Assembly (NCBI GenBank): GCA_022616415.1
Contig: JAKEEU010000332.1
Span: forward strand, 1,367-65,366
DNA from: Candidatus Zhuqueibacterota bacterium
GTDB lineage: Bacteria > Zhuqueibacterota > Zhuqueibacteria > Zhuqueibacterales > Zhuqueibacteraceae
Reading direction: 5' to 3'
DNA: 64,000 nucleotides
In this document: positions 31,887 through 64,000 of the stretch, one piece after another
Numbering within the stretch: the first letter of the stretch is position 1
Layout of the letters: each line of letters starts with the position of its first letter
Notes under the pieces: model-generated
Told to the model about the DNA's origin: nothing
The model's database searches: none
What the model saw: only the letters and a program-made list of their open reading frames with translations
Position numbers and translations under genes: made by a program

Positions 31887-32693
31887 ATGATTTCTCGAAA
31901 GACAGTGCTATATCTGCTGTTCGGACTCGCGCTGGCGCTGGGTTGTGGCGAAAAGAGTCCTTTGCCCACCGGCCGTTGGGTCGATCTGAGTTACGATTTC
32001 TCCTCGGCAACGATTTACTGGCCCACCGCCGAGCCTTTCAGATTGGATTCCGTCGCCGGAGGCTTCACGGAAAAAGGCTATTATTACGCCGCCAACAATT
32101 TTCGCTCGGCCGAGCATGGGGGCACTCACATCGACTCCCCGATTCATTTCGCCGCTGACCGCATGACCGTCGATCAAATTCCTCTCGAACAGCTCATCAG
32201 CTCGGCCGTGTTGATCGACGTTTCGGAAAAAGCCCAAGGCAATCGCGACTATCAAATCACCACCGAAGATTTCACCGCCTGGGAATCGCAACACGAAAAA
32301 ATTCCCGACAGATCCATCGTGCTCCTGCGCACCGGCTATCACCGTTTCTGGCCGGATCGCGTTCGATACATGGGCACCGACAAGCGCGGCCAGGAAGGCG
32401 TTGCCGCGCTGCATTTCCCCGGCCTGCATCCTGACGCCGCGCGTTGGCTGGTGGAGAATCGCCAAATCAACGCCATCGGCTTGGATACGCCGAGCATCGA
32501 TTACGGCCAATCGCAGCTTTTTGAGAGCCATCAAACTCTTTTTGCCAAAAATATTCCGGCCTTTGAAAACGTCGCCAATCTCGATCAATTGCCGCCCACG
32601 GGGGCGCTTGTGTTCGCGTTGCCGATGAAAATAAAAGGCGGCAGCGGCGGCCCGCTGCGGATCGTGGCGCTGGTACCCAACAACGTGGAGTGA
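31887..32693 (+). CDS. Cyclase-family protein (kynurenine formamidase-like), probable lipoprotein
   Basis: Lipobox LALALGCGE. The motif SAEHGGTHIDSPIHF is typical of the putative cyclase / arylformamidase family. Confidence 0.75.
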   Translation: MISRKTVLYLLFGLALALGCGEKSPLPTGRWVDLSYDFSSATIYWPTAEPFRLDSVAGGFTEKGYYYAANNFRSAEHGGTHIDSPIHFAADRMTVDQIPLEQLISSAVLIDVSEKAQGNRDYQITTEDFTAWESQHEKIPDRSIVLLRTGYHRFWPDRVRYMGTDKRGQEGVAALHFPGLHPDAARWLVENRQINAIGLDTPSIDYGQSQLFESHQTLFAKNIPAFENVANLDQLPPTGALVFALPMKIKGGSGGPLRIVALVPNNVE

Positions 32694-32695
32694 TG

Positions 32696-32825
32696 GATTA
32701 CTGTGGAGATGGATTATTGGATCGATGGATTGATGGAGTTTAGCACCGCATTACTCCAACACTCCATTACTCCAATAATCCATATATCCAGCCATCCATC
32801 AATCCTGTAATCCAAATGATTCATT
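32696..32825. repeat. Octamer-periodic imperfect palindrome (NNATGGAT units facing TCCANNNN units)
   Basis: Left half: TGATGGAT TACTGTGG AGATGGAT TATTGGAT CGATGGAT TGATGGAG. Right half: TCCAACAC TCCATTAC TCCAATAA TCCATATA TCCAGCCA TCCATCAA TCCTGTAA TCCAAATG. The halves are largely reverse-complementary. Confidence 0.7.
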
Positions 32826-46432: not shown

Positions 46433-46465
46433 CCTGGATTATCGGGGTTGGTACGGCAAGTAACA

Positions 46466-46660
46466 TGTCATCCTGGAAGGATCTTGTTCAAATTGAGTAC
46501 ACTGCTTGTGCTGAACAAGATTTTTCTAGAATGATGTGTTACTTGCGAGTTCGTTCGCCAGGCAACACAACTGTCATCCTGAAAGGATGTTTTTTGGATT
46601 GAGCACAGTGCTGGCGCTAAAAAGGATTCTTGCAAAATGACGTGGTACTTGGAAGTTGGG
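46466..46660. repeat. Two tandem ~106-nt units beginning TGTCATCCTG(G/A)AAGGAT
   Basis: Unit A begins at 46466 and unit B at 46572. They share blocks TGTCATCCTGRAAGGAT...ATTGAG.ACA.TGCT.G.GCT.AA.A.GATT.TT...AATGA.GTG.TACTTG. Unit A contains the 10-bp stem ATCTTGTTCA/TGAACAAGAT. Confidence 0.6.
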
Positions 46661-47817: not shown

Positions 47818-48150
47818 ATGAAACTGGAAGACTATTTTGACTTTCTCTCGCCCGATGACATTCGCCTCAAAGGGCACCGGATCGGCATTGATAATGTGCT
47901 CGCTTATTACCTGCAAGGATACACGCCGGAGGAAATTGCCGTGCATCTTCCCCCTTTGAGTTTGGAGAAGATTTACGCCACGATCACTTATTACCACCAT
48001 AAGCGCGCCGAAGTGGATGCCTATCTCGCGCGGCTGGCGGCCTGGCGGGAACAACGATATCAGGAAGCGCAGGCCAATCCTTCGCCTGTCGTGCAACGGC
48101 TGCGCGCCATAAAAGCAGAACGGCAGAAAGCGCGAATGGGGCTGCAATGA
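47818..48150 (+). CDS. DUF433-domain protein (antitoxin-like HTH)
   Basis: IRLKGHRIGIDNVLAYYLQGYTPEEIAVHLPPLSLEKIYATITYY. Its stop overlaps the start of the next gene. Confidence 0.65.
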   Translation: MKLEDYFDFLSPDDIRLKGHRIGIDNVLAYYLQGYTPEEIAVHLPPLSLEKIYATITYYHHKRAEVDAYLARLAAWREQRYQEAQANPSPVVQRLRAIKAERQKARMGLQ

Positions 48151-48506
48151 AGATGTGTTTCCTTTTGGACGAAAACATCTCGCCGCGAGTCAAAGCGGCA
48201 TTGCTTCGTCTGAATCCGACAATTGACGTGTTGCGTGTTGGTGATCCAGGCACGCCATCATTGGGCACACTTGATCCGGAAATCCTGCGCTTCCTTGAGG
48301 TGTCGCAGCGGCTTTTAATCACCGACAATCGCATCAGCATGCCGGCGCATATTGAAGCACATTGGGCTGCCGGCGGCCATATTGGGGGATTGTTTTGGGT
48401 TCGCCCGGAAACCGCGATTGGCCGGCTGGCAGAAGAGCTGCACCTCATTTGGGAGACGAGCGAAGCCGAGGAGTGGATCGATCGGCTGGATTGGATTCCG
48501 TTCTAA
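48147..48506 (+). CDS. DUF5615-family PIN-like protein (toxin-like)
   Basis: MCFLLDENISPRVKAALLRL...LITDNR. This is the usual partner of DUF433. Confidence 0.6.
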   Translation: MKMCFLLDENISPRVKAALLRLNPTIDVLRVGDPGTPSLGTLDPEILRFLEVSQRLLITDNRISMPAHIEAHWAAGGHIGGLFWVRPETAIGRLAEELHLIWETSEAEEWIDRLDWIPF

Positions 48507-48592
48507 AAAAATTTTCGAGGCGCTCGCTTCGCTCGCGCCAAACAAATGATCGAATAATAAAATAATCAAATGACTCAAATAACCAAAGGCTC

Positions 48593-48699
48593 GATGATTG
48601 TCACGAGCGCACCGCACGCACGTAGAGGCTGCTGCCAATGCCGTGGCGATCGCAACTGCCGTAGCCGAAATCGACATACCACGCACGCCCAGCGCTTTC
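48593..48699 (-). repeat. DGR variable repeat 1 (VR1), 3' end of the TIR-DUF1566 gene
   Basis: It aligns without gaps to TR 51236-51342. By my count, 13 mismatches lie in the body plus 1 near the stop codon and 1 at the 5' edge. Every one is at a plus-strand T of TR, which is a coding-strand A. Confidence 0.9.
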
Positions 48700-49686
48700 C
48701 TTATCCGCCGTCCAAATCCACGTCTGTTGGCGATCAAACACCGGATCGATATACAAATTGCCGTGCTCTTTCGGCTCCATCAGTGACATCGCCTCTTCCA
48801 AAGTTGGCAAACGCCAATCCGTGACGCCGCCATGTTTGTTGGCGTTCAACTGGCGAATATAAGTTTCAGCCTCTTTGAACGGCACATACTTTTCCGAGCC
48901 GCCTTTCTGCCAAGTCAACCCCGTCGCGTGATCAATCACCAACGCCGCACCGGCCCTCTCGACGCTTTCATATTCATGCTGAATGCCTTTTCCCGACGAA
49001 TTCTTGTATTGGTCGTAAAAATTTTTCTCGCGCAGCATCTGTTGAACTGCTTCGGCAGACAAAGGATTGATCGGCGTGTGGCGTAGTTGGATAATGGTTG
49101 GACGAGCCGGCGGGGTTGGCTTGGAAACCGGCGGTTTGCTTTTGGGCGGCGCTGCTTTTGGTCCATTCTGCGGCGGCTTGGGTACGGAGGGCGACGCGGC
49201 TTGTGACAGGCGGGCATGAATGACGCCGGCGAGTTCCGACTCAGTATCCAAATCTTTGGCGCTGGTTTGGGCCAATTGCAAGGCGCGCAACAATTCCCGT
49301 ACGCCCTGCTCGCGGTCGGAAAAGTCGATATAAGCCGTGTTCGCCATAATCGGCGGCACCGGCGTGCCGTCAATCGGACATGGAACGATCAATTTGCGCA
49401 ACGAGATGGCGTTGGTCCACTCGAGCTTGACCCAATGGGAACCCTTCGCCGCTTTTGACCACACCAGCAGCAGGGTATTACACCACTCCAACGCATCGTT
49501 AATGCGCTCGGGCAAGTTATCGCCGCCGCGGATGCCGGCGTGATCCACCCACACTTCGGCACCGGCGTCCGCCAGCGTCTTTTCAAGGCGGCGTACCAGC
49601 GCTTTGTCTTCCCACGCATGGCTGATGAAAATGCGCGGGGGCTCAGTTTTTGGCGGTTTGGCCAACTTCGTTCTCCGGGTATTCAA
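48601..49686 (-). CDS. TIR domain, Pro-rich linker and DUF1566 (CLec-fold) protein; DGR target 1
   Basis: RIFISHAWEDKALVRRLEKTLADAGAEVWVDHAGIRGGDNL...LLLVWSKAAKGSHWVKLEW (TIR). Linker PKPPQNGPKAAPPKSKPPVSKPTPPARP. C-terminal domain TGLTWQKGG...DWRLPTLEEAMSL...WIWTADKESAGRAWYVDFGYGSCDRHGIGSSLYVRAVRS (DUF1566). Confidence 0.85.
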   Translation of the reverse strand: MNTRRTKLAKPPKTEPPRIFISHAWEDKALVRRLEKTLADAGAEVWVDHAGIRGGDNLPERINDALEWCNTLLLVWSKAAKGSHWVKLEWTNAISLRKLIVPCPIDGTPVPPIMANTAYIDFSDREQGVRELLRALQLAQTSAKDLDTESELAGVIHARLSQAASPSVPKPPQNGPKAAPPKSKPPVSKPTPPARPTIIQLRHTPINPLSAEAVQQMLREKNFYDQYKNSSGKGIQHEYESVERAGAALVIDHATGLTWQKGGSEKYVPFKEAETYIRQLNANKHGGVTDWRLPTLEEAMSLMEPKEHGNLYIDPVFDRQQTWIWTADKESAGRAWYVDFGYGSCDRHGIGSSLYVRAVRS

Positions 49687-51166
49687 TCATCATCGCGATC
49701 AAGCGTTGTTTCGTGTGGCGCAATTCATGGCCGGTTTCTTCCACCACCACGACCGGCAGGCGCTGCGACTTGAGTTTGCTCAACACGGCGCTGATTTGCT
49801 TTTTCGGAAAGCCGCACGCCGGCGAAAAGCCGCGCCACTTTGCATTTAGGTTCAGACCGGCGGCTTGGTGCAGAACCTCCGCCTGCCAGCCGTAGGCTTC
49901 AAAATAGCTTCCCACCTGAACAAGACACAGATGATGGGGAAATGTTCGCAGCAGCCAGCGAATCTGCTGCCGCAAATACCGCGTGCGCCGCAGGGCCTGA
50001 TCCAATCTAACGATTTTATGTTTTTTTCGCAAAAAGAATTTTTGCAGAAACACGTGTTGTTGGAATAATTTTTCCACCAGCCGGCCGGTCTGCGCGTGGC
50101 GGAAAAGGCCGAGATAGGAATTGATCGTGGCGAGCGTCTTTTCCAACGTCTCGAGATCGAAGCGATAAGCCGTGCAGCTTTCGGTGTGGATGGCCAACTT
50201 TGGCCGAAGCTGCCGCAGTTTTTCCTTCAAATTGCCCACGTTGCGCCGGCGCACCAATTGATAACCCGGCCGCACGATACAACCCGCAAAGTCGATGCCG
50301 CCGTGCACCGGTCCGATTTGCATCATCTTTTCATGGACTTCCAACTGCAGCGTGGTTTTGAGAAAATCTCGAATCGCCTGCTGCCATTGCGCCAACTGCC
50401 AGCGGTGGCGCGCCAGCAAAATGAAATCATCGACGTAGCGCAAATAGAAGCGGCATTTGAGCACGTGCTTGACGAATTGATCGAGCGCATTCAAATAGAC
50501 GTTGGCAAAAAACTGGCTGGTGTAATTGCCGATGGGCAATCCGCAGCCTGGCGGCGCGCCAAAGAGCGTTTTGTGCGGCGGAATGCGATGGCGCAAGCCC
50601 TCAGCGTCTTGCAGCTCGTAATCTTGGGTGGGATCGTGAAATACCAGCACGCGCACCAGCCACAGCAGCTCGTGCGGGTGCGGGCAGTGTTTGGCCAGCA
50701 TCTCAAACAGCAACTGCCGGTTGATGGTCATGAAAAAATTCTTCACGTCCATTTTGAGAAAAAAGGCGGGGCGCTTGCCATTGGCGGTGAGGCGGCGCAG
50801 CAGCGTTTGCAGGGTTTGCGCCGCAGCCAATGGACCCTTGTCGGAGCGACAGGCATAAGAATGGTGGATGAAAATTTTCTCCCACACCGGTTCGAGATGG
50901 CTGCAAAGCAGGTGGTGGACGACGCGGTCACGAAACGCGGCGGCAAACACCTCCCGCGCCTTCGGCTTGCTGGTATAAAAGCACACCGAAGTCGAAGGCT
51001 GGTAACGCCGCTCCCGCAGCTCGTCGACGAGCGCCACGAGGTTCTCTTCGTGGTTCTGCTCGAAATCCAGCGCGCTCGGCTTGTTGCGTTTGTTGCGGCG
51101 ACACGCCAGATACGCTTTGTACACCTGCGGGAAATCGAACAAGACTGACCGGTCACTTAAGGCCAT
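49643..51166 (-). CDS. DGR reverse transcriptase with a C-terminal MutS-domain-I-like extension
   Basis: RT motifs FFLKMDVKNFF, the DGR hallmark LPIGNYTSQFFANVYLNALDQF, and FYLRYVDDFILLA. 507 aa. The tail reads VQVGSYFEAYGWQAEVL...GFPKKQISAVLSKLKSQRLPVVVVEETG. Confidence 0.9.
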   Translation of the reverse strand: MALSDRSVLFDFPQVYKAYLACRRNKRNKPSALDFEQNHEENLVALVDELRERRYQPSTSVCFYTSKPKAREVFAAAFRDRVVHHLLCSHLEPVWEKIFIHHSYACRSDKGPLAAAQTLQTLLRRLTANGKRPAFFLKMDVKNFFMTINRQLLFEMLAKHCPHPHELLWLVRVLVFHDPTQDYELQDAEGLRHRIPPHKTLFGAPPGCGLPIGNYTSQFFANVYLNALDQFVKHVLKCRFYLRYVDDFILLARHRWQLAQWQQAIRDFLKTTLQLEVHEKMMQIGPVHGGIDFAGCIVRPGYQLVRRRNVGNLKEKLRQLRPKLAIHTESCTAYRFDLETLEKTLATINSYLGLFRHAQTGRLVEKLFQQHVFLQKFFLRKKHKIVRLDQALRRTRYLRQQIRWLLRTFPHHLCLVQVGSYFEAYGWQAEVLHQAAGLNLNAKWRGFSPACGFPKKQISAVLSKLKSQRLPVVVVEETGHELRHTKQRLIAMMIEYPENEVGQTAKN

Positions 51167-51206
51167 TGCACGAGGAAAGATTTGCGCCTAAAAGTGACCG
51201 GTCAGT
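51144..51206 (-). promoter_or_regulatory. 15-bp inverted repeat bracketing the RT start codon, in the TR-RT spacer
   Basis: ACTGACCGGTCACTT (51144-51158) is the exact reverse complement of AAGTGACCGGTCAGT (51192-51206). The 33-nt loop contains the RT ATG (51164-51166). Confidence 0.6.
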
Positions 51207-51235
51207 AGCTTTCCAAACACGCTCGAACAGCGGAT

Positions 51236-51342
51236 GATGATTTTCACGAGCGCACCGCACGCACGTAGTTGTTGTTGCCAATGTCGTTGTGATTGCAATT
51301 GCCGTTGTTGAAATTGACATACCACGCACGCCCAGCGCTTTT
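51236..51342 (-). repeat. DGR template repeat (TR)
   Basis: A non-coding copy of the VR lying between avd and RT. In the VR frame it reads KSAGRAWYVNFNNGNCNHNDIGNNNYVRAVRS*, with 9 AAY codons. Confidence 0.9.
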
Positions 51343-51459
51343 GCCCCTCTACTTGTGGCCCGTCTTTTCGGGCCCACGTCCGGCCAATCCCGCTGGTGCA
51401 GGTATGGCCGCCGGCGAACTAATGCCCCGAGAGTCGGGGCGAGAGGGGTGCACAATCAT

Positions 51460-51864
51460 CTAATTGGCGCGCGCTTGCCCCGCACCGGTGTGCGAGGAAG
51501 ATTCTGGCCGTCCACTTTTTTGCAGCGTTGACTTCAGCCAGCCTTCGTTCTGCCGGCATAAGTCCACCACCTGATTCACACTATAGTGATACGAATCAAA
51601 ATTTGCAAAGGCTTTTTCTTCTTTGGCGATGCGCAAAGTGATTTTCAAATCTTCCAACAGCTCGCGCAGCTTTTCAAGTTGCGGCGCTTTCTCGGTCGCG
51701 TTGTTGGCGCGCACGATCTGGCGGAGCACCTCGTGCGAAAGCTGGCGCAGCTCCGTGCCGAGGCTGTATTTGTGGTAACGGCTGAAATGGCGCACGACCT
51801 TCTCGAAGTAAACGGTAAGATCGAAAGCCTTTTTGTAAATGGGAAGATGCTTGTATTGAGCCAT
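51460..51864 (-). CDS. avd: DGR accessory variability determinant (Avd; four-helix-bundle, 23S rRNA-IVS-protein-like)
   Basis: A 134-aa basic helical protein (LPIYKKAFDLTVYFEKVVRHFSRYHKYSLGTELRQLSHEVLRQIVRAN) immediately upstream of TR-RT. Confidence 0.8.
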   Translation of the reverse strand: MAQYKHLPIYKKAFDLTVYFEKVVRHFSRYHKYSLGTELRQLSHEVLRQIVRANNATEKAPQLEKLRELLEDLKITLRIAKEEKAFANFDSYHYSVNQVVDLCRQNEGWLKSTLQKSGRPESSSHTGAGQARAN

Positions 51865-52047
51865 GGCTATTCTCCGCGAGAATGCGAAGTCGGACTTGGT
51901 CAGAGGAATTTTCTAAATTTGAACGATCGTTGTGACCAAGTCCGACTTCACTTTTTCCAAAAAATTTTCGAGGCGCTCGCTTCGCTCGCGCCCAAGCAAA
52001 TGATCGAATTATAAAATAATCAAATGACTCAAATAATCAAAGGCTCA

Positions 52048-52153
52048 ATGATTGTCACGAGCGCACCGCACGCACGTAGATGACGTCGCCAAAGCCGTGG
52101 CGACTGCAATAGCCGAGGACGAAATTGACAGACCACGCACGCCCAGCGCTTTC
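52048..52153 (-). repeat. DGR variable repeat 2 (VR2), 3' end of the NTPase-DUF1566 gene
   Basis: It aligns without gaps to TR 51237-51342. By my count, 15 body mismatches plus the same 2 edge mismatches seen in VR1. All are at TR coding-strand adenines. Confidence 0.9.
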
Positions 52154-53911
52154 TTTGTCCGCCGTCCAAATCCACGTCTGTTGGCGATCAAACAACGGAT
52201 CGATGTACAAATTACCCTGCTTCGTTTCGCGTTCCATCAACGACATCGCTTCTTCGAGAGTCGGCAAGCGCCAGTCGTTGAAACCGGCGTACTTTTTCGC
52301 GTTCAATTCTTTAACGTAATCCTGCGCTTGCTCGAAAATCAACTGGTCAGGTGAGCCGGATTGTTGCCAACTCAAACCGGTGGTTATATCAAAGACTAAA
52401 GTTTCCTTGTCTCGGACATAAGGCACATAAACATGCGGAACTCCTCGTCCACTTTTGTTCCAGGATGAATCAAAGAAGCCATAGCGTTTGATCATTTCCT
52501 GAACTTGCGATGAAGATAACGTATACGGCTCACGGCGGAACGACCGAGTTGGCACACCGGCAAGCTGCACCAGCCCAAGCAAATCAGCTTTTGACAGATC
52601 GAGCGGCTTTGGCATATTGGCTTGTACCATCTCCCACAAAAATCGCTTCATCTGATCCGTCCAGCTCAATTCCGGCCGTTCCGCCGCCGGCAGCGCGAGA
52701 AACCGCTTGACCGATAAATATTCCATAATCGAGCGATGGGCGAACTTGAAATTGTCTTCGGCATCGCGGTTGAGCAAGGAGCGGCTGGTGAGCTTCCAGC
52801 CTTCCAGTTTAATCCCAAACTTTTGTGCCAGCGGCTCAATGGCCTCATACGGCAGACGCTCTTCCTTCTTCTCTTGGCGCTGCACAAACAATTCGATGGC
52901 GAGGCGCTCGCAAAATTCGCGCAGCGGTTCTTTTTGCAATCCTTCCACGCGGCCCACTTCGCGATCTAACCACCCTTCCACCGCTTCTTCGTACAACTGA
53001 AACGAATAGCTAAAATCACGACCGCTGGCGAGAAAATTATCAATCAGCGCCAGCAGCATTGGTCGCACGGTCAACTGAGGAATTTTGCCTGCCACTTGGC
53101 GCGCCTGCCGACGTTTGCGCCAGCGCCAGAACCGATAGCGCAGTTGTAAATACTTTTTCACTTGCGCGTCATCAAAGGGCGAGAGATAAAGCTTGTGAAA
53201 AAAGTACTCACCCGTTTCTTTCGGCCCGATGGTGCCCAATTTGACCACGCCGGTGCGGCCCGGCTCTTCTTCGGCGCGCGGGAAAAACTGGGTGCGGCAG
53301 GTGATGAGCACGCGGCGAAACTCGCGGGTCAGGTCGCACAAATCCAACACCCGCTGGCGGTGGTCGACGATGGCGAGCGTGTCTTCGTCCAACGCATCGA
53401 GAAAGAGCACGGTGTCGGATTTTGCGGCAACGGCTTTGATGCGGGCATCGGCATCTTTAATGCCCAGCGGGATCACTTGCAACTGAAACGGTTTACGGAA
53501 CCGGCGCAGGTAGCGGGCGTAGTAATTCAACTGGAAGGCGGTTTTGCCCATGCCGGAGTCGGCGAGCAGGAGCAGATACTTGAATTCGGTGTCTTCGTCG
53601 AGCAAACGGTCGATGGCGGAAAACAAATCTTCGCGCGAGGCATACACGCCACGAATTTCCGGGCTTTGGGCGGGATCGACGCTCTGGCAATACGGCCGGA
53701 GATAATAGCGCATCGCGCGCTCGATATCTTCCGGCGTATAGAGCGTCGCACCGAGTCGCTTCCGCAACGAGCGGCGGTCGTGCCATTGTTTGAGCTTCGC
53801 CAGCAAGCCCAGCAGGCCGCCGCCCCCAATGATGCTCAAAATGGTATCGAGATGATCGAGCCAGGTTTTGGGATCAAAAAGCAGATTGGTGAGGGTGGTA
53901 TCAGGCGGCAT
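52055..53911 (-). CDS. NACHT-like P-loop NTPase with an N-terminal hydrophobic helix and C-terminal DUF1566 (CLec-fold) domain; DGR target 2
   Basis: Walker A LLLLADSGMGKTAF, Walker B VLFLDALDED, an N-terminal ILSIIGGGGLLGLLAKL, and a C-terminal TGLSWQQSG...DWRLPTLEEAMSL...WIWTADKESAGRAWSVNFVLGYCSRHGFGDVIYVRAVRS. Confidence 0.85.
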   Translation of the reverse strand: MPPDTTLTNLLFDPKTWLDHLDTILSIIGGGGLLGLLAKLKQWHDRRSLRKRLGATLYTPEDIERAMRYYLRPYCQSVDPAQSPEIRGVYASREDLFSAIDRLLDEDTEFKYLLLLADSGMGKTAFQLNYYARYLRRFRKPFQLQVIPLGIKDADARIKAVAAKSDTVLFLDALDEDTLAIVDHRQRVLDLCDLTREFRRVLITCRTQFFPRAEEEPGRTGVVKLGTIGPKETGEYFFHKLYLSPFDDAQVKKYLQLRYRFWRWRKRRQARQVAGKIPQLTVRPMLLALIDNFLASGRDFSYSFQLYEEAVEGWLDREVGRVEGLQKEPLREFCERLAIELFVQRQEKKEERLPYEAIEPLAQKFGIKLEGWKLTSRSLLNRDAEDNFKFAHRSIMEYLSVKRFLALPAAERPELSWTDQMKRFLWEMVQANMPKPLDLSKADLLGLVQLAGVPTRSFRREPYTLSSSQVQEMIKRYGFFDSSWNKSGRGVPHVYVPYVRDKETLVFDITTGLSWQQSGSPDQLIFEQAQDYVKELNAKKYAGFNDWRLPTLEEAMSLMERETKQGNLYIDPLFDRQQTWIWTADKESAGRAWSVNFVLGYCSRHGFGDVIYVRAVRS

Positions 53912-54027: not shown

Positions 54028-55206
54028 TCACACCAGCGGCACCAGCGGGCCCATGTCGAACAAGAAGCGCTGGATGTATTCCGGCGTGATATTGTCGCGG
54101 CCGGTCAGGCTGCGGCCAAATTGCAAAACCATTTGGTGCCCGAAGGTGTAACGCAGCTCGCGAATGTCTTCGGAAGTGAGGCCGCCGGAGAGCACGGGCA
54201 TGCACTTTTTCAGGCCGAACCAATTTTGGTTGAAGCGCTGCGGGTTTTGCGTGGTGAAATTTTCGGCCAGCAGGTTGGTGTGCAGCGCCACAACTTGGGC
54301 TTGGGTTTCAATCATGTCGCCGGTGATGGAACCGATCTCCACCAAGTCGGCGCCAGCCAAGCGCGCCAGCTTGCCGATGGTGGTCATGGCGATGCCGTGC
54401 TTTTTGTTGCGGGCGACGGCGCCGTGCGAGGTGCGGTCGGCGTAAATAATCAATCCGGGGAATTCATTGCGCAACATTTGCAGCACGCCGAAGCCGCTGG
54501 TTTGGAAATCGATCGCCACGCCGTTGCCGCCGGAGTTGATAACGAAGCGCGTGCGTTTGAGCACGACGTCGCCGGGGCCGGTGACATTGGGAAAATAAAG
54601 CTTGGGCAGCTCCGATTTTTTCACGGCCTCTTGCGTGAGCGCGAGCACCGCTTTGACGCGCTCTTCAAACCGATTGTTGGGCAAGTCGGTCAACTGATGG
54701 CTATCGCGAATGATGTCGCACCCGCCCATCAAAGCGGCAGAGGCTTTTTTCTTATAGGTTTCCAAATCCACGCCGACTTCCGGCGCAATCAACGCCGAGA
54801 CCAGCGGCCGCTCCGGACTGCCCAATAGCTCGTGCAATGCTTCGCTGCCCTGGGCCGGGCCGCGAAAACTCTTTACCCACCATTCGGGAAAACATACGTC
54901 GAGCAAACGCAAATTGGCAATATTCGCAAGGCCGAAAATTCTGCCGGCGACGACAGAAAGCACTTGGGGAATATTGCCGGCCTCGAAGTGCTCGGCGGGA
55001 TAGGCCACTTTGACGTTGTTGCCGTCAATCGCATACGCATGGGCGGCGAGAGCGGCGCGGTTCGCGCCAGCGCTGGCGTCAATCGCGGCTTTGCTGCACA
55101 ATTCTTCGGTCACGGATTCCAACGTCTTGCCGTTGGTTGGCTCGAGGTGATAGCTGCACAAAAGGTCGGTGGGTTGGGGTTGGTAAGCTTTGTCGATATA
55201 GGGCAT
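54028..55206 (-). CDS. RuBisCO large-subunit-like protein (form IV RLP-type) with a non-canonical active site
   Basis: Collinear with RbcL-family proteins (IPQVLSVVAGRIFG, GGCDIIRDSHQL at the GGxDFxKDDE position, DRTSHGAV, PVLSGGL). Start at the ATG at 55206. Confidence 0.75.
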   Translation of the reverse strand: MPYIDKAYQPQPTDLLCSYHLEPTNGKTLESVTEELCSKAAIDASAGANRAALAAHAYAIDGNNVKVAYPAEHFEAGNIPQVLSVVAGRIFGLANIANLRLLDVCFPEWWVKSFRGPAQGSEALHELLGSPERPLVSALIAPEVGVDLETYKKKASAALMGGCDIIRDSHQLTDLPNNRFEERVKAVLALTQEAVKKSELPKLYFPNVTGPGDVVLKRTRFVINSGGNGVAIDFQTSGFGVLQMLRNEFPGLIIYADRTSHGAVARNKKHGIAMTTIGKLARLAGADLVEIGSITGDMIETQAQVVALHTNLLAENFTTQNPQRFNQNWFGLKKCMPVLSGGLTSEDIRELRYTFGHQMVLQFGRSLTGRDNITPEYIQRFLFDMGPLVPLV

Positions 55207-55431
55207 GGTCGAGTTCCTTTCCCGAGTGATGGATTTTTTTGGTTTCATGAAACAAAAGAAATATCGCAAAAAATCGGACAAATGTCAACAGCGAGATCCG
55301 GATTTTAAAATAATTTACGGGAGTGAGTTATAGCTTGACAATCTCGCCAGATTCTGCTATCTTTAAAATCAGGCAGCAGTCCCAATAAGCCTCTTCGATT
55401 TTCACTCGTGCATTATGAAAAAATTAGCAGT

Positions 55432-55947: not shown

Positions 55948-56217
55948 ATGAGTGAGACAATTAAAGCGATTTATAAAAATGGCATCATTGAGCCTGCTGA
56001 ACCATTAAAGATCGCCGAAGGCACTGAAGTTTATGTGGTTGTGCCTAAGACCACTAAATCTACGGCATATCGCACAGTTCTTGAGGAACTCAGAAGAGAG
56101 GGGTTTCTTGATTTTGATTCCCAGACCATCGCTCAGCCATTTTCCAAGCGCCGGCGTGGGCGTATTCAGGGTAAACCGGTGTCGGAGACTATTATTGAAG
56201 ATCGAGGGCCAAGATGA
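55948..56217 (+). CDS. DUF104/AF2212-type antitoxin (VapB-like)
   Basis: MSETIKAIYKNGIIEPAEPLKIAEGTEVYVVV is the canonical N-terminus of this antitoxin family. It overlaps the PIN gene start. Confidence 0.7.
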   Translation: MSETIKAIYKNGIIEPAEPLKIAEGTEVYVVVPKTTKSTAYRTVLEELRREGFLDFDSQTIAQPFSKRRRGRIQGKPVSETIIEDRGPR

Positions 56218-56675
56218 TCCATTATTTTGACAGTAGTGCAGTCGTTAAAATTTATCTTCAAGAAATTGGCAGCGATTGGGTTGAAACTGTCTGTTTACAA
56301 AATTCCGAGGGCGAAATAGGCATTTCGCAAATTGCCGGAGCCGAAGTGGTTGCTGCGATAAACCGGCGGCATCGTACTGGTGATATAGATGCCGCAACGT
56401 TAGAGACTGCCCTCGACGCATTTGAGAGTGATTTTTCTCGCTTCTTTGTCAGAATTCCTGTTTCGTTGGCGATTATTAGGCAAGCGATGAGACTCCTTCG
56501 ACGCCATCCCTTGCGTGGTTATGATGCTGTTCAATTGGCCACGGCCTTGGAGTGGGCAGATCGACTAAATGCATTTGGTTTAGCTAAACCAATTTTTGTC
56601 AGCGCCGATAACCTCCTGAATCAAGCAGCTATACAAGAAGGGTTGCAGACCGAAAATCCCAACGCTCATCCTTGA
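56214..56675 (+). CDS. vapC: PIN-domain toxin (VapC family)
   Basis: MIHYFDSSAVVKIYLQE (first acidic residue), LRGYDAVQLATAL, and FVSADNLLNQAA. Confidence 0.75.
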   Translation: MIHYFDSSAVVKIYLQEIGSDWVETVCLQNSEGEIGISQIAGAEVVAAINRRHRTGDIDAATLETALDAFESDFSRFFVRIPVSLAIIRQAMRLLRRHPLRGYDAVQLATALEWADRLNAFGLAKPIFVSADNLLNQAAIQEGLQTENPNAHP

Positions 56676-62246: not shown

Positions 62247-62446
62247 GGGCGAAGTCGAACTTGGGCAGCAGGTTTTACGAAATTTGAAACAGCATCGCGC
62301 CCAAGTCCGACTTCACATTCACTGGTGCTATTTTAATCATTTTGCAGCTCAAAAACAACCCGATTCTTGCGATCTTTGCGAAGCCGGACTTGGGCGCACC
62401 GTTTCTTCACTTTTAAGAAATCCTGATGCCCAAGCCCGACTTCACT
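62247..62446. repeat. Two tandem copies of the GAAGTCGGACTTGG...CCAAGTCCGACTTC hairpin element
   Basis: GCGAAGTCGAACTTGGGC ... GCCCAAGTCCGACTTCAC (about 62249-62316) and GCGAAGCCGGACTTGGGC ... GCCCAAGCCCGACTTCAC (about 62378-62446). A related element lies at 51886-51949. Confidence 0.6.
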
Positions 62447-63850: not shown

Positions 63851-63900
63851 AACAAAAACCTCACTAAATGAATTCACGTTTGAAAAACTTTTTTAAAATT

Positions 63901-63961
63901 CCCAACGGATAAATGCAGACCAACGGATAAAACCTCAGTTGGTCTGCATTTATCCGTTGGG
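63901..63961. repeat. Perfect 24-bp inverted repeat (CCCAACGGATA family), a bidirectional terminator-like hairpin
   Basis: CCCAACGGATAAATGCAGACCAAC (63901-63924) is the exact reverse complement of GTTGGTCTGCATTTATCCGTTGGG (63938-63961). It is flanked by A/T runs. Confidence 0.65.
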
Positions 63962-64000
63962 AAAATTATTTTCATTTCCTCGAATCAATCTTAGCACCGG

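Follow-up and report, generated by a model that had tools for sequence, protein, structure and literature searches.

A complete chromosomal diversity-generating retroelement with two target genes in a candidate division KSB1 bacterium

The prototype of the diversity-generating retroelements (DGRs), that of Bordetella phage BPP-1, is laid out as mtd-avd-TR-brt, with a template repeat (TR) between the Avd gene and a reverse transcriptase (RT) gene, and a variable repeat (VR) at the 3' end of a gene for a protein with a C-type-lectin fold. Cellular DGRs of multicellular or aggregating bacteria have been described as clade 5, including clade 5D of Thiohalocapsa PB-PSB1 (Doré et al. 2024, PMC10907252), while Wu et al. 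2018 (PMC5758913) reported three RTs with a weak C-terminal MutS_I motif, along with MSL accessory genes ('Architecture D'). Here we describe a complete chromosomal DGR with two target genes from a candidate division KSB1 bacterium (Candidatus Zhuqueibacterota), located in a stretch of 64,000 nucleotides (GenBank assembly GCA_022616415.1, contig JAKEEU010000332.1, positions 1,367 to 65,366) that we refer to as the window and in whose numbering all positions are given. We hold this reading with great confidence, a judgement that takes in both the identity of the element and the mechanism proposed for it below, the latter being carried over from the Bordetella phage prototype rather than observed in this locus. 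The core features of the locus have all been published for other DGRs (Wu 2018, Doré 2024), and the kind of system to which it belongs, with two lectin-type targets bearing TIR and NTPase domains and a MutS-like extension of the RT, is a known one.

The host record is a metagenome-assembled genome (MAG) in which the DGR is unrecognised by the public annotation; its genes carry the names 'RNA-directed DNA polymerase', 'four helix bundle protein', 'TIR domain-containing protein' and 'DUF1566 domain-containing protein'. The parts lie on the minus strand, intact and in canonical order: target gene 2 (52055-53911; 618 amino acids [aa]; an open reading frame [ORF] with a Pfam Lcl_C match, publicly named 'DUF1566 domain-containing protein' of KSB1 bacterium) with VR2 at its 3' end (52047-52153), avd (51460-51864; 134 aa), the TR (51236-51342), the RT gene (49643-51166; 507 aa) and target gene 1 (48601-49665; 354 aa in the public annotation, with the longest ORF starting at 49686) with VR1 at its 3' end (48593-48699). 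The start of target gene 1 and the stop of the RT gene overlap by 23 nt. A preliminary description of this DNA, made from the letters, had read it as a complete DGR with a 'textbook' signature. Every defining component is indeed present, intact and in canonical order, and the word holds for the core of the element; beyond it, we report a MutS domain I at the C-terminal end of the RT, a TIR and an NTPase domain in the targets, and the non-coding elements described below.

In common with BPP-1, the KSB1 element has the order avd-TR-RT, an Avd protein, and an RT of the IGxxxSQ type with equivalents of Arg74 and Ile181 and a core fold matching at a TM-score of 0.89. Its adenine-specific differences likewise fall at codon positions 1 and 2 of AAY codons, its VRs lie at the 3' ends of C-type-lectin-fold genes, and a GC-rich constant block closes each VR. 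Unlike BPP-1, the KSB1 element is chromosomal, its two targets flank the cassette, and these are TIR and NTPase fusions rather than a tail fibre. Its RT of 507 aa carries a MutS domain I, whereas the phage RT (bRT) has 328 aa. A structured spacer of 117 nt separates avd from the TR and one of 69 nt separates the TR from the RT gene, whereas in BPP-1 the TR abuts avd and is followed by the 144-nt Sp. Finally, the KSB1 VRs are followed by a tandem array with a period of 8, which we looked for in BPP-1 and found to be absent there, and the GC-rich hairpin is weak in the KSB1 element.

The likeness to clade 5D is one of architecture. In both cases there are two targets, each with one C-terminal C-type-lectin (CLec) domain, and these carry central P-loop/STAND NTPases (weakly STAND-like here) or N-terminal TIR or peptidase effectors; in both, N-terminal domains are shuffled on a conserved VR module, and a locus of an uncultured Thiohalocapsa MAG (L034) is among the relatives of the KSB1 RT. 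The differences lie in the host and in the CLec subtype, which is Lcl_C/DUF1566 here and FGE-sulfatase in clade 5D. Text searches of Doré et al. 2024 (PMC10907252) returned no mention of MutS, nor of a mutagenic homing initiation (IMH) or hairpin element downstream of the VR.

The repeats were compared in an ungapped three-way alignment of the minus strand (register VR1 48593 = TR 51236 = VR2 52047). The 107-nt TR aligns to the 3' ends of the two genes base for base as had been described, save that strict register places the start of VR2 at 52047 rather than at 52048. The adenine-rich TR core, which runs from the first to the last variable position (51320-51269), contains exactly 22 adenines. 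Within the corresponding cores of the VRs (48626-48677 and 52080-52131), VR1 differs from the TR at 13 of these adenines and VR2 at 15, the same counts as in the preliminary description, and 20 of the 22 are altered in at least one VR. Non-adenine positions are untouched, with 0 of 71 differing in VR1 and 0 of 71 in VR2; the chance of all mismatches falling on adenines is ∼1e-8 for the 13 in VR1 and ∼4e-10 for the 15 in VR2 (hypergeometric). Read in the VR frame, the TR translates as WYVNFNNGNCNHNDIGNNNYVRAVRS, with nine AAY codons, and this translation and those of both VRs agree with the earlier ones. The mutated adenines comprise 11 at codon position 1, 10 at position 2 and none at position 3. 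The reachable repertoire is ∼10^15.5 peptides per VR. Neither VR contains a stop codon or frameshift, and no further TR-like copy was found within the 64-kb window.

The differences had been called strictly adenine-specific. That no non-adenine mismatch exists is borne out, with the addition of two further A-site differences that lie within the 107 nt and outside the core counts and are common to both VRs, namely A>G at 51342 and A>C at 51243. The second of these falls just past the stop codon. Because the same C is also found in both VRs of the sister element of Candidatus Zhuqueibacter pondensis (locus L004), it is better read as a fixed difference between IMH and its TR counterpart IMH* than as a product of mutagenesis. 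The adjoining GC-rich block GTGCGTGCGGTGCGCTCGTGA is the same in TR, VR1 and VR2 (in the TR, an IMH*-like constant 3' block at 51244-51265), and homology stops ∼7 nt past the stop codon. From sequence comparison, a candidate IMH at the VR end and a non-identical candidate IMH* at the TR end are thus both present, with the A/C difference holding in 4 of 4 VRs of two species.

DGR RTs bear the signature [I/V/L]GxxxSQ, and Arg74 and Ile181 of bRT promote adenine mutagenesis (PMC7826257). The KSB1 RT matches RVT_1 (Pfam, 56.9 bits) and contains both of the motifs pointed out earlier, LPIGNYTSQ and YVDD. Its residues R71 and I212 align to bRT Arg74 and Ile181 and both are invariant in 29 homologues, as are G213, S217 and Q218 of the signature motif. 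The best sequence match in the PDB is the BPP-1 DGR RT (8ub7_A, E 1e-37), with the best group II intron RT at 1e-10. An AlphaFold model of the protein (predicted local distance difference test score [pLDDT] 90) returned the BPP-1 DGR RT, from structures of the DGR ribonucleoprotein, as all of its top five fold matches, with a TM-score of 0.89 over the target. A position of the RT outside the DGR group had been named, beside non-adenine mismatches, as an outcome that would overturn the reading; its closest matches in PDB sequence and in fold are to the BPP-1 DGR RT, as judged by these proxies rather than by a tree, and a DGR-type RT is supported by sequence and model alike. Among NCBIfam models there was no DGR-specific RT match, the best being group II intron, Drt3a and retron models, all far under their cut-offs, and PADLOC gave domain-level TIR and generic RT matches only, with no system.

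Several public gene calls for related RTs (P0002, P0004, P0008, P0011, P0038 and P0046) begin too early and translate through the TR. The resulting artificial N-termini are rich in T, I and A (e.g. MAIATTTTSTTTT), and these artefacts mark the position of the TR.

The C-terminal part of the RT (residues ∼395–497; 49676-49984) forms a MutS domain I-like module. It matches Pfam MutS_I (PF01624) with 27.5 bits against a cut-off of 20.6 and Taq MutS with a phmmer E-value of 1e-4. A model of residues 385–507 (pLDDT 91) was searched with Foldseek, and the top 50 of 50 fold matches belong to the MutS family (including Taq MutS, E. coli MutS, MSH3 and MSH6), with TM-scores of 0.53–0.74 relative to the query, typically ∼0.7 over ∼100 residues, and root-mean-square deviations of 1.0–5.0 Å. 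The residues G419-S-Y421-F-E423 align to GDFYE of Taq MutS. This is the site of Phe-X-Glu, the mismatch-contacting motif of MutS (F36/E38 in E. coli MutS); the Phe position is a Tyr here, a conservative variant. Across 29 RTs, G419 and E423 never vary, and most have F or Y at the aromatic positions.

The relatives surveyed comprised 80 loci from named genomes and 80 viral contigs. A fused MutS domain is found in 35 of the 80 genomic relatives, and dozens among the best 120 RT homologues carry PF01624, so that a fusion noted in three RTs by Wu et al. is common in current databases. As in DGRs with MSL or Msl genes, a homologue of the mismatch-recognition domain is part of the KSB1 element and co-occurs with avd; unlike there, it is fused to the RT C-terminus, with a fold confirmed by modelling. 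Among MutS-positive relatives the domain is fused to the RT in most and detached in a few, where a sequence resembling MutS domain I is separate from the RT match (L026 6937-7044, L054 3034-3282 and L070 10545-10802), either upstream of it or >1 kb downstream. These detached sequences are presumably the equivalents of the MSL accessory genes that Wu et al. 2018 described as stand-alone. In Bacteroides, host MutS reduces DGR output 5–10-fold in an all-or-nothing manner, and a stand-alone MutS-like accessory protein, Msl, is known from DGRs of that genus (Macadangdang et al. 2024, bioRxiv 10.1101/2024.11.15.621889). Given the MutS fold, the published effect of host MutS and the MSL and Msl genes, it is a reasonable inference, by analogy, that the fused domain helps a mismatched cDNA:VR heteroduplex to evade host mismatch repair.

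The product of avd matches Pfam bAvd (PF22296) with 45.4 bits against a cut-off of 40, in keeping with the Avd-like gene noticed earlier upstream of the TR, and the gene ends 117 nt before the TR. Both target proteins are predicted to end in an Lcl_C/DUF1566 C-type-lectin-like domain that carries the VR (74.3 bits in target 1; 71.6 bits in target 2, residues 505–617). Target 1 consists of an N-terminal TIR domain (TIR_2, 88.5 bits), a Pro-rich linker and the C-terminal Lcl_C domain. Among PDB entries its TIR domain resembles PdTIR (1e-9) and AbTIR (1.7e-5). It contains a WVKLE sequence of the WxxxE type, which holds the conserved glutamate of NAD-cleaving TIRs such as SARM1 and AbTIR; the candidate residues W85 and E89 do not vary among 40 homologues. 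In 40 TIR-Lcl_C homologues, the columns that correspond to TR AAY codons have an entropy of ∼3.2 bits, against 0–0.3 bits for the scaffold residues between them. Target 2 consists of a hydrophobic N-terminal segment, a P-loop NTPase with a visible Walker A (GMGKT) and Walker B-like (LFLDALDE) sequence, and the C-terminal Lcl_C domain; PADLOC and the PDB give no match for the NTPase. On these sequence features the targets look like intracellular sensor-effector proteins of cytoplasmic appearance, which agrees with the suggestion that DGRs of this type generate diversity in the sensors of conflict or immunity systems.

The same architecture is found in seven close relatives (L004 and six more) and in many distant ones. 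In the six, an Lcl_C target, bAvd, TR and RT are followed by a second target wherever the contig reaches that far, and in three this second target is a TIR-Lcl_C protein. Among the genomic relatives with an adenine-biased repeat pair, the template lies directly upstream of the RT in most, and many have one VR on each side. The upstream target of L004 (5275-7107 of that locus) keeps the lectin/VR end, with a caspase (Peptidase_C14) domain replacing the P-loop NTPase of the gene at 52055-53911 in the window, and in other relatives NACHT, protein kinase, M23 peptidase or vWA domains are joined to the same variable module; these domain assignments indicate swapping of effector domains on a conserved DGR module. 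In L006, L008, L013 and L034 the translations, read by eye, suggest that the VR is not at the gene end and is followed by a short, hydrophobic, PEP-CTERM-like tail.

The RNA scaffold essential to BPP-1 is located mainly downstream of the TR, and a published survey of other DGRs covered only 40 nt upstream of it. In the KSB1 element the 117-nt spacer between avd and the TR is predicted to adopt a four-helix fold, a closing helix with three hairpins (51448-51344), that stops 2 nt short of the TR. An RNAalifold alignment of nine relatives shows 18 of 28 pairs retaining pairing through changes on both sides. Standard pairs occupy 89% of the cells of this alignment versus 73% in shuffles, none of 500 shuffles matching the observed value, and slid registers give 31–49%. 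A covariance model built from the nine found 11 more copies among 88 sequences, all directly upstream of TRs and none elsewhere; their hosts are MAGs labelled Nitrospirae/Nitrospinota, Desulfobacterota, purple sulfur Gammaproteobacteria and one candidate phyla radiation (CPR) bacterium. With all 20 copies, 24 of 28 pairs show compensatory change and 0 of 500 shuffles reach the observed value on any of five measures, in an alignment that was fitted to the model and so favours the structure. The domain is found in L004, L005, L165-L170, L011, L016, L018, L023, L027, L030, L034, L036, L043, L066 and L071. Rfam has no family in the window at gathering thresholds, and a search of 51100-51560 at E ≤ 1 gave only a chance microRNA match. 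The 69-nt spacer between the TR and the RT gene (51167-51235) is poorly conserved relative to L004, the alignment collapsing after TGAAAATCATC, and has no significant fold (z +0.75).

A second non-coding feature, likewise on the minus strand, begins where TR/VR homology ends, in the form of tandem AT-rich 8-mers (about five units here and 3–6 in relatives). After VR2 the array occupies 51997-52044 with ∼5.5 units of consensus GRTYATTT (period 8 and 5.5 copies by Tandem Repeats Finder [TRF]). After VR1 it occupies 48545-48590, with the units GTTATTTG, AGTCATTTG, ATTATTTT, ATTATTCG and ATCATTTG; TRF reports period 8 at 48553-48587 and a strict four-unit array lies at 48560-48588. The two VR-flank arrays are the only four-unit arrays in 128 kb, that is, on both strands of the window. 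Among relatives, a strict form of the array was found after 24 of 71 VRs and after none of 54 TRs (P ∼2e-43 against local background). The first unit begins 0–8 nt past the end of homology in 22 of 26 cases, and the unit consensus is strongly biased also at positions that were unused in the search, with viral variants such as AGYCATTY. A motif-free test was also applied, scoring the 40 nt after the VR as positive when a shift of 8 gave the best self-similarity, with at least 50% identity. Flanks positive by this measure number 37 of 70 for cellular VRs and 42 of 110 for viral ones, compared with 0 of 118 TR flanks, 0 of 173 gene bodies and ∼1.6% of shuffles. Overall, some 40–50% of VR flanks have the array. 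The array is present in VR flanks of L004, L005, L009-L012, L016-L019, L021, L023, L042, L043 and L057 and in many viral loci (L093, L097, L103, L106-L111); it is conserved from KSB1 to CPR bacteria and viral contigs, accompanying DGR VRs across unrelated target architectures.

A hairpin or cruciform downstream of the VR has been described as a target-recognition element (Guo et al. 2011, PMC3240598), and archaeal DGRs have hairpins with GRA loops (PMC4372165); a GC-rich inverted repeat downstream of the VR occurs in 34% of DGRs (Wu et al. 2018, PMC5758913) and is hence not universal. The array resembles such elements in lying on the 3' side of the VR, in being absent from the TR and in its fixed orientation, and differs from them in consisting of direct tandem AT-rich 8-mers, located between the GC-rich VR end and the hairpin, rather than of an inverted repeat. 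About one third of the VR flanks examined have a GC-rich hairpin, whose loop is often GCA or GAA and which starts 27–70 nt past the end of homology. Where the hairpin exists, the array precedes it, and the array often occurs without any hairpin. Each KSB1 VR flank carries a copy of a weak GC-rich hairpin followed by a T run, terminator-like in appearance: one after VR2 (51959-51995; repeat D5) and one after VR1 (48506-48542; repeats D5 and D7), the latter abutting the stop of a convergent DUF5615 gene. The two copies are 97% identical (repeat D5). No significant pairing at long range was found between the VR end and the GC block that follows it (z -1.9 and -1.2).

We found neither the array nor the 5' RNA domain described in Wu 2018, Yan 2019, Roux 2021, Doré 2024, Paul 2015, Schillinger 2012, Guo 2011 or Handa 2024, subscription journals being outside the scope of this search. 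As sequence features both are statistically solid and widespread in relatives.

By extension from the prototype, and from the anatomy, adenine-specific pattern, homologies, folds, conservation and covariation reported here, we infer the following steps. The avd-TR-RT region would be transcribed, and RT and Avd would reverse-transcribe the TR RNA, misincorporating opposite template adenines. The mutagenised cDNA would then replace the homologous VR at the 3' end of either flanking gene, recoding up to ∼14 codons on the ligand-binding face of the Lcl_C domain. The structured RNA immediately 5' of the TR probably serves as a scaffold for the ribonucleoprotein of RT and Avd; the MutS domain I of the RT probably engages the heavily mismatched cDNA:VR heteroduplex and aids its escape from host mismatch repair; and the AT-rich period-8 array, which adjoins the GC-rich end of each VR and has no counterpart at the TR, is probably a mark of the recipient site.

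Several observations weigh against this account of the locus. What is said above of the roles of MutS domain, array and RNA domain is a set of proposals. NCBIfam DivGenRetAVD scores 49.7 bits for Avd, under its cut-off of 80, and the NTPase of target 2 is weakly STAND-like, at 17.7–17.9 bits for nSTAND3 (cut-off 27.2) and 15.9 for AAA_16 (cut-off 32.6). The canonical GC hairpin is weak here, with a 5 + 2 bp stem and a GAA loop ∼60 nt past the stop codon; its predicted fold of -6.8 kcal/mol is indistinguishable from shuffles (z -0.18), and it is shared by the two VR flanks and conserved in L004. The array of L008 lies ∼100 nt beyond the VR, past the stop codon that ends a PEP-CTERM-like tail, and such a placement agrees equally well with a role in homing and with one at the 3' end or as a terminator. 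Lastly, VR variants were not found in public assemblies, protein clusters or metagenome scans, each within the scope given below.

Of the alternatives, the one that survives best concerns the array, which could be a feature of the 3' ends of target genes (acting in transcript stability, termination or protein binding), or an upstream element of the avd promoter, rather than part of retrohoming. We regard this as a serious contender, though short of an even chance. The array is AT-rich and lies past the stop codon, in upstream targets it sits just before avd, and the BPP-1 prototype works without it; the placement in L008 points the same way. Set against these observations, the array is found also after downstream targets that have no avd following them, it lies 0–8 nt from the end of homology in most cases while TRs and gene bodies lack it altogether, and it tracks DGR VRs from KSB1 to CPR and viral contigs across unrelated targets. 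Returning to a homing role, the array might possibly be read by the Avd oligomer or the RT, or serve as an easily melted entry site. We also advance, tentatively and with considerable doubt, a broader proposal, in which the GRTYATTT array, more than the GC hairpin, marks the recipient site in a large group of cellular and viral DGRs and, together with the 5' RNA domain and the RT-fused mismatch-binding domain, defines a mechanistic variant of retrohoming unlike that of BPP-1.

An unlikely alternative is that the DGR is a relic, its parts intact and its retrohoming stopped, so that the differences between VRs and TR are fossils of past activity. Consistent with this, no population-level variation was seen. 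Two of the loci retrieved (L001 and L002) are the same contig as the window; a third, from a Logan assembly of run SRR16971109 (L003), is the sole additional public assembly of the locus; it is 100% identical over 3,278 bp and is uninformative on the VRs because it ends exactly at the VR-flank repeats. Clusters of the targets at 90% contained the same protein or N-terminal TIR fragments only, with no VR variants, and two scans of metagenome contigs, using the VR scaffold with N at each TR adenine, found nothing. The repeats themselves argue otherwise. Just upstream of the repeat the target genes differ at 23 of 91 bases (25%), yet there is not one non-adenine mismatch among the 2 x 71 TR-homologous positions, from which it follows that one template is overwriting both VRs, or did so recently. 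No ORF or catalytic motif is disrupted, and the VRs are open throughout. The sister element L004 adds to this: its RT is 84% identical and its architecture the same, its TR differs from that of the window by nine non-adenine substitutions, and both of its VRs carry the same nine. Template and VRs have therefore evolved in concert after the two lineages split, which argues for activity since that divergence. The column entropies given above for TIR-Lcl_C homologues, high at TR AAY codons and low in the scaffold, are a further indirect argument for activity. The window and L004 are homologous only between the lectin end of target 2 and the flank of VR1, so that flanking genes are of no help in dating the insertion. 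Judged by its sequence, the DGR is complete and apparently functional.

The weakest alternative, ordinary paralogous duplication or gene conversion with a chance adenine bias alongside an RT of the group II intron, retron or defence class, draws on the sub-threshold NCBIfam matches to group II intron and Drt/retron models and on the generic PADLOC RT matches, and is effectively refuted by the improbability of the adenine restriction in each VR, by the same adenine bias at 124 of 160 related loci (adenine-biased TR/VR pairs at 53 of 80 genomic and 71 of 80 viral loci), by an RT motif of IGxxxSQ rather than QGxxxSP with best sequence and fold matches to a DGR RT and an adjacent Avd, and by the lack of any match to an intron RNA or retron non-coding RNA family in Rfam.

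The locus is therefore a well-preserved example of a DGR from a poorly studied candidate phylum, and it supports the view that cellular DGRs diversify intracellular sensor-effectors (TIR and NTPase proteins here; caspase, NACHT or kinase proteins in relatives). The VR-specific array and the covarying 5' RNA are sharply bounded, easily mutated and directly testable, and the MutS domain I of the RT gives direct access to the question of how heteroduplexes of DGRs avoid mismatch repair. Since the recent reconstitution of DGRs in E. coli (PMC12875486), the array, the RNA domain and the MutS domain are open to experiments on target recognition, the least understood step of retrohoming and one that matters for reprogramming DGRs as directed-evolution tools.

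A long hairpin lies between target 2 and avd (51865-51965), with a minimum free energy as RNA of -42.1 kcal/mol (z -6.7) and imperfect arms of 25 nt, of which 19 bp pair with one mismatch. We considered it as a regulatory element of the DGR and rejected this. Related copies lie elsewhere in the window (62249-62267, 62298-62316 and 62427-62445), and an equivalent 19-bp inverted repeat, looked for in 18 loci, occurs in the window and in L004 only, in the same place and with differing sequences. On these grounds the hairpin is probably an insertion resembling a repetitive extragenic palindrome (REP) or a miniature inverted-repeat transposable element, belonging to a dispersed family of this genome rather than to the DGR.

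Directly upstream of the DGR on the minus strand is a gene for a RuBisCO large-subunit-like protein (54028-55281; 417 aa, with both RuBisCO_large domains). On both sides of the element are toxin-antitoxin-like pairs on the plus strand, DUF433 with a DUF5615/PIN-like gene at 47818-48506 and an AF2212-like with a PIN gene at 55948-56675, and somewhat further out are an HEPN gene and a gene for a 927-aa protein with SMC_N/AAA_21 domains. These surroundings resemble a variable island for defence or addiction. Between a DUF92 gene and an AAA_24 gene are two intergenic, tandem 97-nt copies (46455-46551 and 46561-46657) that are 73% identical, the first holding a 35-nt inverted repeat; they would represent either another element of REP type or a small RNA with structure. 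Strong local inverted repeats, apparently unrelated to the DGR, are located at two further places, 32687-32805, with 53-nt arms rich in GGATT/TGGAT units, and at 63894-63968, with 34-nt arms that are 91% complementary.

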